DNA of 64,000 nt from Chloroflexota bacterium (GTDB taxonomy: Bacteria > Chloroflexota > Dehalococcoidia > Lucifugimonadales > UBA3495): contig JAPPMU010000024.1 of assembly GCA_028873965.1 (NCBI GenBank), forward strand, positions 16,503 to 80,502, given 5' to 3'. The notes below the pieces were generated by a model. The model had not been told where the DNA came from. It ran no database searches and saw nothing but the letters and a program-made list of their open reading frames with translations. Both the position numbers and the translations under genes were made by a program. Each line of letters opens with the position of its first letter. The stretch's first letter is position 1. Below are positions 45,577 through 55,279 of this stretch, in pieces.

Positions 45577-46527
45577 ATGACCGAACCGAAAACGATAAAC
45601 GCTGCACAAACCGGCGTCTTTGAGGGGGATTGCCTGGAGTTAATCCCAAATCTCCCCGATGCCAGTATCGACGTTGTTGTCACCAGTCCGCCCTACTGGG
45701 GCCAACGCTCCCCCGGTGGGGGTGTGGGCAACGGCGCTGAGGAAGACCCCAGGGAGTACCTTGCCTTTTTGGAGGCGGTATTCACTGCTTTGCTGCCCAA
45801 GCTGAAGCGGCACGGGATTGCGTGGCTCAACTTGGGCGATGCCTACAACACGCCGGTAAATTGGGGAGCGAAGGATTACAAATACAGTTCGTTAGGGGCT
45901 GATAAAAATGGTTTCTCGCCCGAAAACGCGGCCTATACCAAGCCGCGTTTCAAGCGTAAGGCGTTTGTTGACAAAACGACCGGATGGCTACAGTACGGCA
46001 ACTTGCTGATGCTGCCGCAGCGTCTGCTGATAGCGCTCACTGAATCGGGGTATCTGTACCGCGGCGAAGTTATCTGGACCAAGAAGAACCCGATGCCGGA
46101 AGGACGTTGCCGCCGGCCGCACCGCAAGCATGAACCCATATACCTGTTGGCCAAAGATGAGCAGCATTCGTTCCGCGCCGCGCCGCCGGTGCCCAGCGTG
46201 TGGGAGTTTGCCAATGAACACATCCCCGGCTTGCAGCACCGATCACGGTTTCCCATAGAACTGCCCAAACGCTGCATTGAAGCTTACGGGCGGAGCGGAC
46301 GCGAGGTAGTGGTGCTGGACCCATTCTCCGGTTCCGGGTCAGCCGGCATAGCAGCGCTGCGATTAGGCTGTACTTACATCGGGTTCGAGATTGACCCGGA
46401 GCAGGTTGCGGAATCAAGGAAGAGGTTGGCGCAGATCAACGAACAGCAAAATTTCAACTTTGACGAGGCGAACGGCGTCATAAAGTCGAAATCAGAAATC
46501 TCGAAAAATGGTCGTCTGGATTCGTAA
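45577..46527 (+). CDS. DNA methyltransferase (N4-C/N6-A, beta class, SPPY motif)
   Basis: DVVVTSPPYWGQ is motif IV. VVVLDPFSGSGSAGIAALRLGCTYIGFEID is motif I. ATG at 45577. The region is lower in GC. Confidence 0.85.
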   Translation: MTEPKTINAAQTGVFEGDCLELIPNLPDASIDVVVTSPPYWGQRSPGGGVGNGAEEDPREYLAFLEAVFTALLPKLKRHGIAWLNLGDAYNTPVNWGAKDYKYSSLGADKNGFSPENAAYTKPRFKRKAFVDKTTGWLQYGNLLMLPQRLLIALTESGYLYRGEVIWTKKNPMPEGRCRRPHRKHEPIYLLAKDEQHSFRAAPPVPSVWEFANEHIPGLQHRSRFPIELPKRCIEAYGRSGREVVVLDPFSGSGSAGIAALRLGCTYIGFEIDPEQVAESRKRLAQINEQQNFNFDEANGVIKSKSEISKNGRLDS

Positions 46528-47575
46528 AATCACATACGAATATCCGGGCTTCTGCATCGCTATCTTCGGGTGTGGGCGTCGTATTGCGGTTGTAGGAAAA
46601 GCACGCTGAGAAGTGGCCATGCTCCTCGAAGTCGCGCCGTTTGTCGCTCGGTTGGCCGTCATCAGTGTCTCCAAACTCGCCGCGATTGACTGGCCGCGCT
46701 GCGGGGAAACTCTTGACATCCATTGTCCAAAACACGGAAAGGTAACCGGCGGAGATCAATGCTTGGCTCATTGGCACGTCATCGGTGCGCCTTTCCGCAA
46801 GGCTGGATTTCACGTGAACCACGCCTAGCAGCTGATCTACGCTATCAACATCATATAACACTAATATGTCGGCTTTATCAGGAATAATGCGTCGATCATC
46901 AACAATACCCAGCAGCGCGGCTTTTTCGGCTTTATTACCTATACGAATGTCCACGCCGTGACGCGCCAGGAACCGCCGGTAGTGCCTTACCATAACGCGC
47001 TCTAAAGCCCACCCGCTGGTCCGTTTCCAACTCTGTTCCAAATTCAGCCGGGCGTTGGCTATCGGGTGATTCGAACGGTCGCAATAGGCACGATTTACCA
47101 AAAACGTCCACAAATCGGATGGATTCGCATTCGGCCACACTTGTACCGCAGCTAAAAACATATCCGCGACAGCGTCAGCTCGCCTGTTGCCAGACGCTAA
47201 TCCTTCTTTGAGTATGCTCACTACCCGGTCAAATTCCTGCTGCGTTGCTCCTTGGATCTGATATTCCGCGTCGTACCGGTCATACCTGAACCGGATCAGC
47301 ACCCCATTGCCGGTTGCGACCGCGGTAAGACCGTCCGTGCGGTTTGAAGTTTCGGCATCGCCGATACCGTCGAAAAGGCGCCCTGGCGCAATCCCAAACG
47401 CCGATGCCAGTTGCAAGATGGCGGTTAAGGCTGGGTTGCGCTCCCCGCGTTCAATGCCGCCGATGTATGACCGATCCAGCCCCGCGACCTCGGCTAGGCT
47501 CTCCTGCGTCATGCCCAGAGATTCGCGCAGCCGACGAACGTTGCTGCCGAATTTCAGTTTGCCAGCATCGCCCAT
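46478..47575 (-). CDS. XRE-HTH fused to a putative PD-(D/E)xK-type restriction endonuclease domain
   Basis: N-terminal HTH (FGSNVRRLRESLGMTQESLAEVAGLDRSYIGGIERGERNP). The C-terminal region contains IIPDKADILVLYD...GVVHVKSSLAERR, a nuclease-like motif. The gene is convergent with the methyltransferase and overlaps it by 50 nt. Confidence 0.55.
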   Translation of the reverse strand: MGDAGKLKFGSNVRRLRESLGMTQESLAEVAGLDRSYIGGIERGERNPALTAILQLASAFGIAPGRLFDGIGDAETSNRTDGLTAVATGNGVLIRFRYDRYDAEYQIQGATQQEFDRVVSILKEGLASGNRRADAVADMFLAAVQVWPNANPSDLWTFLVNRAYCDRSNHPIANARLNLEQSWKRTSGWALERVMVRHYRRFLARHGVDIRIGNKAEKAALLGIVDDRRIIPDKADILVLYDVDSVDQLLGVVHVKSSLAERRTDDVPMSQALISAGYLSVFWTMDVKSFPAARPVNRGEFGDTDDGQPSDKRRDFEEHGHFSACFSYNRNTTPTPEDSDAEARIFVCDFTNPDDHFSRFLISTL

Positions 47576-47644
47576 GGTGGGGTATTCTGTGGACGGTTGC
47601 CGGCAGCGTCTAGCGACTAATCGTACCATTTGGAGGCATCACCC

Positions 47645-49923: not shown

Positions 49924-50733
49924 CTACAACCCGCAATGCCCTTCGCATTCGTTGATGAATCCGTTCACTTCATGCTCATGGTTGTCAAGCACAAGTGCAT
50001 CCTCCAGCGGGATGCGGCGATGATGCAAGTAAGCCCGCTTGCGAAACATTCGGCCGGCATTGTGCGTGCTGGACCGGAGCATGGCGTCAATTTCCACAGC
50101 CTCCTGGTATAGCTCCGGTTCGCTCTGCTTGATGTCAAGCCAACTGGACGAGCTGCGGAACGGGCAACCGATGCAAGCGCTGCGGGAAAGGCTGCGATTG
50201 GGATAATGTTCTGCGAACCAATACAAGCATTGTTCCCGCGTCATCGGCAAGTCGTCAATTAGTGGATAACGATGCTTAATCCACCAGTTGCGACTTGGCC
50301 TGACCCGCAGTGCCTCATCGGTAGTTATACCCAACCACATCTCAACGTTAGTTTCCGATGAAAGACTTTGCCGAGGTCTGACCCCCAACAACCGCTGAAC
50401 CTCTTTTCTGATGGGGTCTAGTTTGTAGTTTTTGGTGCATTGCCGCCAGTTGATTCCGGCGGGTTGACCATCCCGGTCGGCTAGATACGCCGGCAAAGTC
50501 AGCCAAGCTTGCCCTTGGGCGTTGACGCCGTTGACGACGTCATCCCGTAGGCTACGCCCGTTGTCAGTTGTGATAATCGGGAACGACACCTTGGATTGTA
50601 GCCATTCGATGTTGTCATAGACAGATCGGGGTTCCCACTGGGTATCGGCGAATATGGCACAATCGGGTTTGACGCCAAAAGTTTCATCGTTGGCAAGCAG
50701 GCACATCACAGTGCTTTGCACACCGCCACCCAA
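49924..50733 (-). CDS. PAPS-reductase-like (PP-loop ATP pyrophosphatase superfamily) protein; operon gene 4
   Basis: LGGGVQSTVM (partial PP-loop), RQCTKNYKLDPIRK, GITTDEALR, HRYPLIDDLPMTREQC and SACIGCPFRS. The only start in the track is a TTG inside the PP-loop, with no SD. The frame stays open upstream into gene 3. Confidence 0.75.
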   Translation of the reverse strand: MGGGVQSTVMCLLANDETFGVKPDCAIFADTQWEPRSVYDNIEWLQSKVSFPIITTDNGRSLRDDVVNGVNAQGQAWLTLPAYLADRDGQPAGINWRQCTKNYKLDPIRKEVQRLLGVRPRQSLSSETNVEMWLGITTDEALRVRPSRNWWIKHRYPLIDDLPMTREQCLYWFAEHYPNRSLSRSACIGCPFRSSSSWLDIKQSEPELYQEAVEIDAMLRSSTHNAGRMFRKRAYLHHRRIPLEDALVLDNHEHEVNGFINECEGHCGL

Positions 50734-50777
50734 ACTCAGGACGCGGAGTGCCGGCGGCGTGGAGTTTGGCCGGTAGC

Positions 50778-51548
50778 CTACGGTTCTTTTTTTGGCTTGG
50801 CCTCCTCCACAACAGCGCGGAGCTCGTCGTAATCCAGAAAATCGAAAGACAGAGTGGCGGCGCGCAGGTTCAATGCTGTCATCAACTCATTGGCATCTTT
50901 CGTTGTCCGCAGGTGCTCGTTGCCGTCGAGAAAAACGTCCCAGACCGCCGCCAATAGTCGGGGATTAGACGACAAAAATGTCCGGTCAATGGTTTGGTGG
51001 TACAGGTTCACGTTTCGAGCCATTTCTGCAAGCAAGTCGTCTTGGCTATGCTTTGAATGTTCGGCAGCCCGGGTCGCCATTTCACCAAGCCACCACAGCC
51101 GTGCCGCGGCGTTCCACTTGCGCCCGTCAGAGCCAGAGTATTGCAGATAACGCCGGTGCACGAAATTATACGTGGCTTGGTTGAGATTGCTGGATTGCCA
51201 CCGGACAGGAACGTACTTAGGCAATTCAAAGCAGTTGATGGTTGCCCAGAGCAAACTATCCGCTGCTTGCACGACAGAGGTACCTATCGCACTGCGCATT
51301 ATGGGCGCGTACATGGCATCAGTATTTGGTCCGCCTTTCTGCAAGCGATTCAAATCCGCTAAAGGCACAGACATATTCAGCCGCGCGCCGTATAACTCGG
51401 CGTCCGGGCCATGCTCCTCACGGCCAGCCTGCTCCATGCGCTGGCGTAGTTCGTCTGGATCGCCCTGGATAAACAACCGTGGCTCGGACTCGGCAAGCGT
51501 CAACAGGGCGTTATAACCGGCATCGTTCAATAACTGTATTTCTGGCAT
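50778..51548 (-). CDS. hypothetical protein; operon gene 3
   Basis: 256 aa, helical, W/R-rich core (AARLWWLGEMATRAAEHS). No family recognised. The gene ends with CCA AAA AAA GAA CCG TAG. Confidence 0.6.
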   Translation of the reverse strand: MPEIQLLNDAGYNALLTLAESEPRLFIQGDPDELRQRMEQAGREEHGPDAELYGARLNMSVPLADLNRLQKGGPNTDAMYAPIMRSAIGTSVVQAADSLLWATINCFELPKYVPVRWQSSNLNQATYNFVHRRYLQYSGSDGRKWNAAARLWWLGEMATRAAEHSKHSQDDLLAEMARNVNLYHQTIDRTFLSSNPRLLAAVWDVFLDGNEHLRTTKDANELMTALNLRAATLSFDFLDYDELRAVVEEAKPKKEP

Positions 51549-51561
51549 GGTCAGTTAGCCT

Positions 51562-52443
51562 CTATTCATCAGTATCGTCAGCGTCAGCATAGTCAGCCAA
51601 CAAGATGGCAAACGGCGCACTCAATAGACGTTGGGTCGCCAGAAACAAGGAATGCGAACCATCGTATCCTGGGCCCCCAATGTCTAGATTGTGAGCAAGC
51701 AATTGGGTCTTTACGCAACTGAACCAGGCGCAATTTTCGTAGTCTCCGTCATCCCACAGATCTTTCACGACGGTTAACACAGAAAGGACTGCGCTGGTGA
51801 AAACCGATGGCATTGGCAATCTGCTGGCTTTGCGCACTTCGTTGAATGTATCCAGCGTAGCGCGGTTGGCGAATATCTCCACATAGTCGTTTCCGATGTC
51901 CACGCTGACGTCGAACTCACCGTCGTTCAACCGCCCGCTTTCGTCTTCTTTCAAGCGGAAAATGCTCCTCACTGGTCTCACATCGGAATTAATGATGAAA
52001 GACCAATGCAGGTCGGTGGCCAACGGCGCCAGTTCGTTAATTATCACCGGTTGCTTGCCGTATTCTGCATGGGCAGTTTCGGTGGAAAGAACAAAACTGC
52101 GGGTTGCGAGTATGACCGGATGCACCTGCACCTCGTTTTTGAGCCGGCCCACCGGAATACGCCCACGCGCCACGAACGGCTCGCCGGGCATAGCTTCCAG
52201 CCGGTCACGGTACAGGGTGGAGCCACAGTACACCATTGCCGCGCATTTGGCGTCGCCGGACTCCACAGCACCGACGAGCGCCGGCTCGTTCAAATTGAAC
52301 CGCACCGATATAGACAGAATCCCGCTGTCCTGGTCGTATTGCGGTGGGTCACAGGATGTCTCCAGCGTGGAATCCAAGCCGTAGTCGTCAGCATCAGGGC
52401 GCAGCACCGGGTACAGGTACTGGCGATTAGAACGGTAACGCAT
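51562..52443 (-). CDS. hypothetical protein; operon gene 2
   Basis: 293 aa. The start overlaps the stop of the ATPase gene (TAATG). Acidic C-terminus. No family recognised. Confidence 0.6.
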   Translation of the reverse strand: MRYRSNRQYLYPVLRPDADDYGLDSTLETSCDPPQYDQDSGILSISVRFNLNEPALVGAVESGDAKCAAMVYCGSTLYRDRLEAMPGEPFVARGRIPVGRLKNEVQVHPVILATRSFVLSTETAHAEYGKQPVIINELAPLATDLHWSFIINSDVRPVRSIFRLKEDESGRLNDGEFDVSVDIGNDYVEIFANRATLDTFNEVRKASRLPMPSVFTSAVLSVLTVVKDLWDDGDYENCAWFSCVKTQLLAHNLDIGGPGYDGSHSLFLATQRLLSAPFAILLADYADADDTDE

Positions 52444-54338
52444 TATCCGCTCCCGCCCGGCGTTTGCGGGCTGGTCTGGCCTCTGCCCACCAACCGGAAC
52501 GTCTTGCCTTGCACCGGCTCATTAGTTTTTATCTCCAGCTGGTAACGATCTTGTCCGTTGCCCGGCAGCTTGCGGATTGCCCCTTCTGCTACGTCAACCA
52601 CAGTGTCGCCAGATTTTGCCTCCTGGATCCTCAGTGAATGTTCGGCGCCGTCCTCCCCTACCGCTACGAGTCGCACTTCGAACAATTCTTGTCCAGGATT
52701 GTCAAAAGCGGCGATGACCCAATGAGTTTCGTTTCTGACCAGTTGTACCCTGATGCTGTTCACCCGAGCCACCGGCGGACGGCGATTAGCGCCAGTCTGT
52801 CCGCGTCCACCGCCACGACCCCCCGACCCTCCGCTGCCGCCGCCGTTCCGTGTTCGCCGCCGTTCGCCCCCACGGCCCCCGTGCTCTCCGGCGAGCAAAC
52901 CCGCGCCGCCTCCGGTATTAGGTGATTGCCAAGGGACAGTCACAGAAACGGTTGCAGGTTTTTCAGTGTCGCCAGGTTCGCCGCCGTCATCGTATGTCGA
53001 CAGCCCATAGGGTACTAGTTCGGGGATGTATTCGCCGGATTCCGGAGACTGAGGCCCGGCTGCCAACCCAATGCGCTCTCGCACCCACTGGCCGATTTCC
53101 GTCAGCGCATTGTTGGCATCCCTGCGGCGGTCGGAGTCTTCTATGTAGCCCACTGATAGTCTGTCGTGCTTGGGAGATTCCGAATCTCTGATATAAGACG
53201 ATTCGCCGGGTTCAGATATGCACTCGATGACTGCTGTGAATCCACGCCAGTGCGGATCTATCCGGCCCAAGCCCAACGCCATGTCCCGCCGGTCGGAGGT
53301 AATCATCATTCCCGAATCGCGGACCAGAGCAATCTCGCGGACTTTCGGATTTGAGTCCTCGTGAACTTGGATACGCAACGAAACATTGCCTACGCCGGCG
53401 AAGTATTCCGTTGCAGCTGGTTTCATTTTTGACACCCTGATAAAGTTCGCGGTGCGGGACAACTGTCCGTGGTATTGCCTACCGATATTATCGGCGTTCA
53501 CCTCATCATCGCCAACTTTGACGGTAAGATGCCCTTTTACAATGGCGTGAAAGTAATTATCGATGGCAATTGCAATGCAATCTCGTTGCCAGCCGGGTTG
53601 GCCTCTATCCGGACCAATCTTGTAGCCGGGAATGTATATGGCCGTGCCGGGTTGCCTCAGCCCAAATATGCGCGGCACGTCGTTGTCCGTCAGCGGGGCG
53701 TAAGACCCTGCGCTCAGGTAGCCGGTGCGGCGCTTTGGTGCGCCACTGCCGTCGGTATGTGATACCAAAATGGTCTTGCCGATGAACCGCAGGTTCATGC
53801 GGTCATTGTCCCGCCAGGCGGTGGAATAGAGGACAGTACGCAGGTCGGTCACCGCAAAAGCGGAGTGCTTGCCCAAGCCAAAGGAACCAGCGGCGTCCTT
53901 TTGCTCTTTCACCGGCGAGCCGGAGCCCTTGGTAAGAGCTGCCCATTTGCTGGGAGCGCCGCCGGGCCGAGGCACGTCTTGCGCACCGGTGGTATTGCTG
54001 TCTCTGATGCAAAGGGTGCGCAGTTGGCGGTTATCGTTCAGCAGCCATTTGCCGTTAGTGAACTGCTCTTTTCCCTTGTCATCGTTATGAGGTGAGTTTA
54101 TCGCCCAGTCGAGGATATCGCGCAGTTGGTTGCCTTCAAAGTCGCTGATAGCGAGGTCCTGCAAGCTAAACTCCACTCTGACTGGCTCACCGCCAGCCTT
54201 GGCGTCAAGCGAGTTCTGGATGGATTCCCGAATCAAGTTGGTATCCCGCTGGTCCGTGAAATGCGAGATGCCGGGATCGTTAGGTCCCTCAATTTCACCG
54301 GCGTCATTGGGCGGGAACTGCCATGTCATTTTTGGCAT
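52443..54338 (-). CDS. GHKL-superfamily ATPase with Gly/Arg-rich linker and C-terminal beta-rich domain; operon gene 1
   Basis: Bergerat-fold N box IRESIQNSLDA, a G1-like box CIRDSNTTGA and a G2 box AGSFGLGKHSAF. The low-complexity stretch GGRGGERRRTRNGGGSGGSGGRGGGRGQ spans aa 475-520. GGGGAG lies 8 nt upstream of the ATG. Confidence 0.75.
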   Translation of the reverse strand: MPKMTWQFPPNDAGEIEGPNDPGISHFTDQRDTNLIRESIQNSLDAKAGGEPVRVEFSLQDLAISDFEGNQLRDILDWAINSPHNDDKGKEQFTNGKWLLNDNRQLRTLCIRDSNTTGAQDVPRPGGAPSKWAALTKGSGSPVKEQKDAAGSFGLGKHSAFAVTDLRTVLYSTAWRDNDRMNLRFIGKTILVSHTDGSGAPKRRTGYLSAGSYAPLTDNDVPRIFGLRQPGTAIYIPGYKIGPDRGQPGWQRDCIAIAIDNYFHAIVKGHLTVKVGDDEVNADNIGRQYHGQLSRTANFIRVSKMKPAATEYFAGVGNVSLRIQVHEDSNPKVREIALVRDSGMMITSDRRDMALGLGRIDPHWRGFTAVIECISEPGESSYIRDSESPKHDRLSVGYIEDSDRRRDANNALTEIGQWVRERIGLAAGPQSPESGEYIPELVPYGLSTYDDGGEPGDTEKPATVSVTVPWQSPNTGGGAGLLAGEHGGRGGERRRTRNGGGSGGSGGRGGGRGQTGANRRPPVARVNSIRVQLVRNETHWVIAAFDNPGQELFEVRLVAVGEDGAEHSLRIQEAKSGDTVVDVAEGAIRKLPGNGQDRYQLEIKTNEPVQGKTFRLVGRGQTSPQTPGGSG

Positions 54339-54403: not shown

Positions 54404-55279
54404 TCACCGGCGCGACAGGGCCGGCGGCCAGTGTGATTGACGCCGCTGTATGTCGCTGCGCACCCAGCAGGTGCTGAGCTCAACCTGGCCGGCGGTCTCA
54501 CGCGCCTGCTGATAGGCCTCCATGAAGTTGGAGGTCAGGATGCCGGCGGGCAGCGCGAACAGCCCGATGCCCAGGAGGGCGATGAATCCCGCCAGCGCCC
54601 GGCCGGCCAGGGTTCCCGGCACCACCTCCAGAGACGGCAGCGTGGTCAGGATCACCACTGAGGCCCACAACGCATCACCGATGGACCCGAACTGCTCGTG
54701 GTTGCCGCCGGGAAGCTTCGTTTCCGCGGCGTGCAGCATGTAGCCGGCGGCCAGCCAGAACACCCCCAGGGCAACCAGCATGCTGACCAACTGCGACGCG
54801 GAGCGCAGCATCACGCGGCCCATGAGCCGCATGGCCGGGAAACGGCGGCCGGTCATGATCAGGCGGGAGACCAGGCGGAAGATGGGCAGCACTTCCACCT
54901 CGCCGAACACGATCATCACCACCAGCGTGGGCCAGATGGCAATAAAGTCGATGATCGCCGCCGCGTTGGTGGTGGCGTAGCGCAGGCGGCTGCGCCAGCC
55001 TCCCCGCCGGTAGTTCCGGTGCCAAACGATGCACCACAAGCGAACCACGTACTCGGCGGCGAACACGCTGACGAAGAAGAACTCGAGCTCCGTCTTGCCG
55101 ATGGCCAGGTTAACCGCGCTGAACAGCACCAACCCGAAGATGGTGAAGTCCACCACCCGCGCCGCGCCCCCGCTGTCCGCCTCCAGCACGTGAAACACGG
55201 CGTGCTGGAGACGCACGTAGGGATGGGCGTCAGGCAGCCGGCACTGCAGCAGGGAGAACCTGCCGGAAAATATCCCCAT
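54404..55279 (-). CDS. ion-transport (Kv-like 6TM) family protein with a degenerate selectivity filter
   Basis: 6TM architecture. The pore helix FGSIGDALWASVVILTTLPSLEVVPGT aligns with the K+ channel pattern ..WWAVVTMTTVGYGD..P, but has TTLPSLE in place of TTVGYGD. Confidence 0.7.
   Translation of the reverse strand: MGIFSGRFSLLQCRLPDAHPYVRLQHAVFHVLEADSGGAARVVDFTIFGLVLFSAVNLAIGKTELEFFFVSVFAAEYVVRLWCIVWHRNYRRGGWRSRLRYATTNAAAIIDFIAIWPTLVVMIVFGEVEVLPIFRLVSRLIMTGRRFPAMRLMGRVMLRSASQLVSMLVALGVFWLAAGYMLHAAETKLPGGNHEQFGSIGDALWASVVILTTLPSLEVVPGTLAGRALAGFIALLGIGLFALPAGILTSNFMEAYQQARETAGQVELSTCWVRSDIQRRQSHWPPALSRR

Follow-up and report, generated by a model that had tools for sequence, protein, structure and literature searches.

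A conserved slippery heptamer and a candidate programmed −1 frameshift between a DUF6339 gene and a PAPS-reductase-like gene in a putative defence operon of Chloroflexota

We analysed a 64,000-nucleotide (nt) stretch of DNA from a Chloroflexota bacterium (GenBank assembly GCA_028873965.1, contig JAPPMU010000024.1), hereafter called the window, which carries an operon of four co-directional genes on its minus strand in the order A-B-C-D. All coordinates are those of the window, and the operon is read on the minus strand. Gene C is the third operon gene of a first-pass annotation, which had been made from the sequence alone and had drawn attention to the junction between C and the next gene, where a run of seven adenines (A7) links C to a frame for a PAPS-reductase-like protein that has no evident start codon. 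The genes and the features of this junction are listed here, with lengths in amino acids (aa) and E denoting the expectation value of a profile match.

52443..54338, minus strand: gene A, 631 aa; matches PADLOC model PDC-M33A (E 4.8e-71) and, weakly, a sacsin P-loop domain, a hint of a GHKL/sacsin-like ATPase.
51562..52443, minus strand: gene B, 293 aa; matches PADLOC model PDC-M33B (E 4.5e-23); no Pfam family.
50778..51548, minus strand: gene C, a zero-frame open reading frame (ORF) of 256 aa; matches DUF6339 (PF19866, E 1.5e-19) and PDC-M33C (E 4.4e-16).
50801..50808, minus strand: Shine-Dalgarno (SD)-like sequence GGAGGAGG, 7 nt (10 nt in an upstream register) 5' of the heptamer; candidate stimulator.
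50787..50793, minus strand: slippery heptamer A_AAA_AAA in the frame of gene C (CC[A AAA AAA] GAA); proposed −1 shift site.
50778..50780, minus strand: zero-frame stop codon TAG, two codons past the heptamer.
49924..50787, minus strand: coding part of D in the −1 frame; linker RTVGYRPNSTPPA, then the PAPS-reductase-like PP-loop domain; stop codon at 49924-49926.
50713..50736, minus strand: codons of the PP-loop S-L-G-G-G-V-Q-S, which contain the TTG at 50731-50733.
50715..50786, minus strand: region 3' of the heptamer; weak predicted structure with a minimum free energy of −28.7 kcal/mol (z = −1.06).

Re-reading the minus strand reproduced the junction as it had first been described. Gene C ends GCC AAG CCA AAA AAA GAA CCG TAG, the A7 run occupies 50793..50787 (T7 on the plus strand), and the PAPS-reductase frame is the −1 frame, which is open across the run and reads ..GQAKKRTVGYRPNSTPPALRVLSLGGGVQST.. 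This frame is open for 31 codons upstream of A7 and for 52 codons upstream of the PP-loop GGG, and spans 320 codons in total. The first ATG, GTG or TTG within it is, as had also been noted, the TTG at 50733-50731, which encodes the Leu inside the PP-loop S-L-G-G-G-V-Q-S and is not preceded by an SD sequence. A consensus scan detected no promoter-like site between C and D, and no Rfam family matched at the junction. When 50787-51548 is joined to the −1-frame part of D, the predicted trans-frame product is a polypeptide of 541 aa, with ..EEAKPKKRTVGY.. as the predicted peptide at the junction of C and D.

A protein search with this trans-frame product returned many proteins encoded by a single ORF, 532-559 aa in length, that cover 99-100% of the product. 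Identities reach 45-61% among the nearest of these natural fusions and 31-36% in a large distant group, and nearly all carry DUF6339. Single-ORF C-D proteins of 535-567 aa occur in many lineages, and those of the sister and outgroup lineages are about 540 aa long. The alignment extends across the junction, in that the −1-frame linker, PKR-x-x-G-H/Y/R ... PPALRVLSLGGG, matches the linkers of the true fusions, which have the general form PK(R/S/A)xxG(H/Y/R) (PKSMGH in protein P0004, PKARMGH in P0002). In the same alignment, the PP-loop residues S272, G274, G276, Q278, and S279 are invariant, and D of the window retains all 37 residues that are invariant in the family. Three fused genes examined with their surroundings show the same A-B-(C-D) synteny.

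The structural model of a natural fusion is in keeping with this two-part architecture. An AlphaFold model of P0002, which is 61% identical to the trans-frame product of the window, contains two confident domains, and the junction falls in a disordered linker between them (residues 251-260, with a predicted local distance difference test score of about 41). In a fold search, the C-terminal domain matched CysH/APS reductases, the [4Fe-4S] thiolases TtuA and NcsA, and LarE, and the DUF6339 domain had no fold match among the 50 best PDB matches listed. At the profile level, D matches Pfam PAPS_reduct (PF01507), the PADLOC model for SspD (6.4e-12), and the phage family phrog_424, "PAPS reductase" (3.4e-42), and it contains conserved cysteines. 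The profile matches, the P0002 model and the invariant PP-loop residues together establish a PP-loop motif and a PAPS-reductase fold in D. NCBIfam holds no model that matches C or D, and a sequence search of the PDB with D gave spurious matches to tetratricopeptide repeats and a glucosidase only. The phrog_424 profile covers D (49924-50760, minus strand) only over profile positions 162-411 of 460; since the match begins at position 162, the phage relatives appear also to bear an N-terminal extension of about 160 residues before the PP-loop domain.

The arrangement of C and D is not unique to the window. A scan of species-representative genomes yielded 38 loci with relatives of D (65-87% identity), most of them in metagenome-assembled genomes (MAGs) of Dehalococcoidia, with one from Acidimicrobiia, one from Caldilineaceae, and two from "Ca. 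Spongiisociaceae". D directly follows C in the −1 frame in 36 loci from different sponge-type MAGs, the window included; the exceptions are L029, where C and D are fused in frame, and L014 and L015, where D lies apart from C. A heptamer of the form X_XXY_YYZ, in the frame of gene C and at the same position, is present in 35 of the 36 loci, and it takes the form C_CCA_AAA in 31, A_AAA_AAA in three and C_CCT_TTA in one. The codons of C at the position of the A7 run are distributed as follows.

CCC CCA AAA: 31 loci.
CCA AAA AAA: 2 loci, the window and L036.
ACA AAA AAA: 1 locus, L028.
CCC CCT TTA: 1 locus, L026.
CCC CCC AAA: 1 locus, L003.

The sequence of the heptamer thus varies, but re-pairing of both tRNAs one base back is predicted to remain possible in each of its three forms. 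Each of these forms (C_CC.A_AA.A, A_AA.A_AA.A, and C_CC.U_UU.A) belongs to a set of 18 heptamers, selected in E. coli, that are rarer in genes than expected and that shift at frequencies above 0.10% without a stimulator (PMC4066793). The first-pass annotation had suggested comparing homologs for fusion and for conservation of the A-run. The slippery site is indeed conserved and the outgroups are fused, but its usual form is C_CCA_AAA and not an A-run.

Coding constraints do not readily account for this pattern. From the codon usage of the same genes, CCC-CCA-AAA is expected at 2.2% of P-P-K sites, and nearby conserved Leu, Val, and Arg positions use 4-6 synonymous codons. The synonymous divergence (dS) of D between the window and its closest relative is 1.15, i.e., above 1, so synonymous sites are saturated. 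Given this saturation and the excess of CCC-CCA-AAA, the nucleotides of the heptamer are constrained beyond what the protein sequence requires. The ratio of nonsynonymous to synonymous divergence (dN/dS) of D is 0.03-0.07, and about 0.06 between the window and L001; at saturated dS, these values imply that D is translated and under strong purifying selection. The reading frames around the heptamer are likewise patterned. The zero-frame stop lies 1-2 codons past the heptamer in 29 of the 36 loci, and the −1 frame is never closed over the 20-23 codons from the heptamer to the PP-loop in any of the 36, whereas within four codons upstream of the heptamer it is closed in 10.

Indels, whether from assembly or from mutation, typically fall in homopolymers, and an eighth adenine in the window would fuse the frames of C and D exactly, a point that counts against a frameshift there. 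Moreover, in-frame fusions (L029 and P0002) lie inside the same clade. The first-pass annotation had listed an assembly error or a recent inactivating indel among its explanations, and in this account the window alone would carry an artefact or a recent one-base deletion in what is truly, or was ancestrally, an A8 run within a simple in-frame C-D fusion. However, the CC+A7 tract of the window (9 nt) has the same length and frame as the CCCCC+AAAA of 31 relatives and as the A7 of L028 and L036, the same frame offset is seen in every one of the closest relatives (81-87% identical), and D of the window is intact by both measures given above, its 37 invariant residues and its dN/dS against L001. 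The same junction also occurs in assemblies with differing contig names, including NODE_ and k113_ names, which suggest short-read assembly of the SPAdes and MEGAHIT types (L018, L033); because the assemblers differ by these names, a systematic homopolymer artefact is excluded for the family. With tract length and frame shared and D intact, we see very little likelihood of an error or inactivating indel across the family and consider one unlikely in the window, where we give an original A8 run only a slim chance.

The distribution of tract lengths bears on two further explanations. The operon resembles a system for DNA modification or defence, homopolymer switches are frequent in systems of this type, and both fused and split forms exist within the clade; the length of the A-run might accordingly toggle a modification enzyme between ON (fused) and OFF (split) at the DNA level. 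Yet the tract length is fixed over the 36 loci (three loci with A7, 31 with C5A4), contingency loci tend to have tracts longer than the 4-7 nt seen here, and in the fused L029 and P0002 the tract is unchanged and the difference lies downstream, so we regard a phase-variable switch as extremely improbable. Alternatively, RNA polymerase might add an A on the A7/T7 tract, such that some mRNAs encode the fusion in frame, a possibility that the first-pass annotation had also raised. Transcriptional realignment is known to occur at A-runs, and A7 is rarer in genes than expected, whatever the frame (PMC4066793). Transcriptional slippage could contribute in the three A7 loci (the window, L028, and L036), but 31 of the 36 loci have C5A4 and L026 has C5T3A. 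The C5A4 tract is judged too short for efficient transcriptional slippage, which therefore cannot explain the majority form of the site, and the conserved feature is a frame-specific X_XXY_YYZ pattern that is explained by tRNA re-pairing only. Slippage of this kind is accordingly improbable as the general explanation, and we assign it a low likelihood overall.

The phylogeny of D and the organization of its relatives provide natural controls for re-pairing by the ribosome at the heptamer. A tree built from the D domain groups every frameshift locus in a single clade of 42 (support of 92 in the Shimodaira-Hasegawa-like approximate likelihood ratio test), with the fused P0005 and P0006 with P0007 as sisters and eleven distant fusions as a fused outgroup. 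Older fusions have relaxed codons at the site (CTG CCG CCC AAG AGG in L057, CGC CCC AAG AGC in L056). Two fusions are nested in the frameshift clade, L029 and L058, the latter encoding P0002; both retain CCCCCAAAAG and have the frame changed just downstream. The simplest history would be an ancestral fusion, a single origin of the frameshift arrangement, its long retention, and a few reversions.

The heptamer is missing from C genes that D does not directly follow. In L014 and L015, C ends in ..VPAEW before its stop and has no heptamer, D starts with ATG (MRVLSLGGG), and a 453-aa ORF lies between the two genes. In L059 and L061, the C genes are followed by Vsr and lack both PPK and the heptamer. 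At the level of sequence, the comparison thus shows that the heptamer is conserved and is absent where C and D are apart, that D is under selection, and that the trans-frame product is homologous to single-ORF fusions. As separate observations on the first pair of loci, the 453-aa ORF (L014:1620-4852, and L015) has no Pfam or PADLOC match, and the region upstream holds a DUF1800 gene and no visible A or B gene.

Upstream of the heptamer, GGAGG is found at a distance of 7-10 nt in 20 of the 36 loci, and any SD tetramer within 5-17 nt in 28. In E. coli, SD-like sequences 6-17 nt upstream stimulate frameshifting (PMC4066793). In the window this element is GGAGGAGG, which overlaps conserved Glu-Glu codons, and constraint on the protein may contribute to its conservation.

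In 19 of the 36 loci, the window among them, the stretch from the heptamer to the S-L of the PP-loop contains no ATG, GTG, or TTG, and in these start-less loci the codon that overlaps the stop of C is GTA, CTA, ATA, or TTA, none of which is a start. In the window, this codon is GTA, and the codon at the Met position of MRVLSLGGG is CTC. With these two codons in place of starts, a case for separate initiation does not apply to the window, where, as far as its sequence indicates, D cannot be made separately. Because D has no start codon of its own there, frameshifting would be the only route to its synthesis.

Based on these observations, we consider it likely that a C-D fusion is produced in this family by programmed −1 ribosomal frameshifting, and that the A7 run of the window is a functional variant of the site. 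The first-pass annotation had proposed that a −1 slip would give one polypeptide with an intact PP-loop, and this proposal is supported by the conserved heptamer, by purifying selection on D, and by natural fusions that align across the junction. In the proposed mechanism, ribosomes translating the mRNA of gene C would reach CC-A_AAA_AAA-G with two Lys-tRNAs in the P and A sites, and a fraction of them would slip back by one base, probably aided by the SD-like element 7-10 nt upstream and by the nearby zero-frame stop. The shifted ribosomes would continue in the −1 frame through a flexible linker of about 15 residues into the PP-loop enzyme D and so produce the 541-aa C-D fusion, whereas those that do not shift would stop two codons later and release free C of 256 aa. 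We infer the ribosomal shift itself, as well as its efficiency and its purpose, from these comparisons.

Several observations weigh against this reading. Those on RNA structure concern the window first, where the 72 nt downstream of the heptamer fold no better than shuffled sequences (z = −1.06). The subfamily of the window has no convincing conserved structure, as its fold of −8.6 kcal/mol involves the slip site and shows no covariation, and RNAalifold applied to all junctions together returned no consensus structure. A long-range stem between GCCNCCG and the (GGN)3 codons of the PP-loop, considered as a family-wide candidate in 35 sequences, was rejected, since it performed no better than shuffled or slid controls. 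The downstream stimulatory structure for which the first-pass annotation had suggested looking is nonetheless supported in a nine-sequence subclade. There, an outer stem of 9 base pairs begins 9 nt past the heptamer, with the three Gly codons of the PP-loop as its 3' arm, and surrounds a covarying hairpin. Pairing holds in 90% of cells, double changes occur at four of the inner hairpin's pairs, and the covariation score was reached by 0 of 500 shuffles. Because a structure is not supported in the window, in its subfamily, or family-wide, we claim the SD-like element for the window and a structure for the nine-sequence subclade only.

The remaining difficulties lie in the loci themselves. They are related, such that the counts are not fully independent, though dS is saturated. 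In L003 (4016-4030), which otherwise closely matches L002 and L004, a single substitution has left a degenerate site, CCC CCC AAA; it spoils re-pairing in the A site and could mean that function was lost recently, that the sequence contains an error, or that a weak site is tolerated. The relatives with in-frame fusions apparently do without free C, so a need for two products is not evident. Finally, some frameshift loci offer D a start of its own. One codon past the heptamer, the stop of C overlaps a start as GTGA in L007, L012, and L013 and as ATGA in L008 and L009, and an ATG is present at MRVLSLGGG in seven loci. D could be made separately in these loci, which still keep the heptamer. Homologs with their own start upstream of the PP-loop had been named at the outset as potential evidence for separate genes. 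Such homologs form a minority subclade, in which the ATG or the GTGA/ATGA overlap stands beside the heptamer, and more than half of the loci, as given above, have no start at all.

These starts raise the question of whether ribosomes generally start D on its own at a non-canonical codon past the stop of C, by initiation or termination-reinitiation, with the PPK nucleotides serving another purpose. Besides the overlaps and the ATG, which stands six codons before the PP-loop GGG, the stand-alone homologs L014 and L015 start at MRVLSLGGG, and other PAPS-reductase paralogs have a classic ATG about 12 codons before the PP-loop. However, the window and 18 other loci have no ATG, GTG, or TTG before the PP-loop, and no SD sequence precedes the TTG within it. 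Separate initiation would also leave unexplained why three different heptamers are all slippery and why the −1-frame linker is homologous to the linkers of true fusions. We therefore think it quite improbable. Under programmed frameshifting, persistence of the heptamer beside separate starts of D fits a lineage that is moving toward separate expression, in which L014 and L015 nest, and it is also what one would expect if tethered and free enzyme were both required.

Viewed against known cases, the mechanism is that of a textbook −1 site, closest to IS3-family OrfAB and near dnaX in its upstream SD-like sequence. In the IS3-family insertion sequences (IS911, IS3, IS150), as here, the heptamer lies near the end of the upstream ORF, OrfA, with the zero-frame stop just past it (PMC4066793). 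The downstream ORF, OrfB, is again without its own start, and the shift yields an A-B fusion alongside free A. The IS3-family heptamer is often A_AAA_AAG or A_AAA_AAA, and an upstream SD sequence and/or a downstream structure may occur. In the family described here, the commonest heptamer is C_CCA_AAA, single-ORF fusions are ancestral, the gene does not belong to a mobile element, and a candidate defence operon encodes the two products, one a DUF6339 protein and the other a PP-loop enzyme. E. coli dnaX (tau/gamma) is likewise a chromosomal gene with a heptamer of Lys codons and a stop soon after it in one frame, and an internal SD-like sequence about 10 nt upstream acts as its stimulator. Unlike the shift proposed here, which would add a whole enzyme domain, that of dnaX truncates the protein, and the strong downstream hairpin of dnaX has no demonstrable counterpart in the window. 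The G/GT tail assembly chaperones of phages resemble this system in having a late, conserved −1 shift that yields a short protein and a C-terminally extended one in fixed proportion, and in the conservation of the position of the site across very divergent sequences; they differ in gene family, function, and genomic setting.

What is new is the gene family and the setting of the frameshift. To our knowledge, few conserved programmed frameshifts are known in bacterial genes beyond insertion sequences, phages, dnaX, and prfB. Full-text literature searches gave no relevant result for DUF6339 or PDC-M33, for frameshifting in defence genes or in genes of the PAPS-reductase type, or for GHKL/MORC proteins with a PAPS reductase, and the available part of a 2016 review of recoding contains no mention of PAPS reductase, restriction-modification, or phosphorothioation (PMC5009743). 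The family offers unusually clean natural controls, namely, ancestral fusions with relaxed codons, recent re-fusions, and separated genes without the heptamer. It also corrects an annotation, as gene callers miss D or start it inside the PP-loop.

The composition of the operon points toward defence. A, B, and C match the respective models A, B, and C of the PADLOC candidate defence system PDC-M33 (PDLC04582-04587). SspD is the only PADLOC match of D, and none was seen under the PDC-M33 name among the matches. D shares with the PP-loop ATP pyrophosphatases DndC and SspD, and with phrog_424, the PAPS-reductase fold, the PP-loop, conserved cysteines, and a defence-like operon. However, the similarity to SspD is modest (E 6e-12), the PP-loop of D reads SLGGGVQS, and the PADLOC scan of the four operon genes found none of the partners DndA/B/D/E or SspA/B/C, the rest of the genome not having been searched.

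Elsewhere in the Chloroflexota, C is found with other neighbours. Genes of about 250 aa that encode DUF6339 only (L059:1514-2720, L060:285-2796, and L061:243-2705) are followed by a gene for a Vsr endonuclease and not by D. The annotated start of Vsr overlaps the end of C by about 90 nt in L059 and L061. A C5 cytosine methylase also follows in L060 and L061, and the next ORF with a family match in L059 encodes a pyridoxal phosphate-dependent enzyme. The window differs from such typical C-only members of PDC-M33 in that D replaces Vsr and the C5 methylase and is tethered to C by fusion or frameshift. Since C is followed by Vsr and a C5 methylase elsewhere and by D here, we infer that A-B-C forms a core combined with exchangeable DNA-modification modules, of which D would be one.

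Other genes in the window and in the same genome deserve mention. At 46478-47629 on the minus strand, about 2.3 kb downstream of the operon, a 383-aa protein combines an N-terminal XRE/controller-type helix-turn-helix with a type II restriction endonuclease domain (BsaWI-like; PADLOC REase_II, 7.8e-45), and the presence of this gene near the operon suggests that the region is a small defence island. An ion-transport-family channel gene (54404-55279, minus strand; PF00520, 9.2e-22) directly adjoins the operon upstream. A second PAPS-reductase-like gene of the same genome, L040 (contig C54:115389-116237), is 45% identical to D and has an open frame of 292 codons with GTG starts and no DUF6339 gene upstream; paralogs of the L040 group in same-genus relatives are in-frame DUF6339 fusions of 545-567 aa. 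When other PAPS-reductase paralogs of the genus were considered as further cases of frameshifting, they proved either to be fused in frame to DUF6339 or to be unrelated genes that stand alone and start normally, and they were set aside.

For the PDC-M33 family, these results mean that the system, in the frameshift clade, includes a PAPS-reductase-like modification enzyme that is physically tethered to the DUF6339 subunit, and they lead to a testable model of an A-B-C core with interchangeable DNA-modification modules. The putative shift probably serves to fix how much C is free relative to how much is tethered to the enzyme in this candidate DNA-modification-based defence operon. More tentatively, and with considerable doubt, the frameshift could be the stoichiometry device of a new kind of modification-dependent defence, in which free C would act with A and B as a restriction or sensing arm and tethered C-D as a self-marking arm. 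If this were true, a single gene would set the balance of attack versus self-protection, and the heptamer kept beside an ATG of D, along with the repeated interconversion of fused, frameshifted, and separated forms, would represent the tuning of that balance in sponge symbionts that live under dense phage populations.

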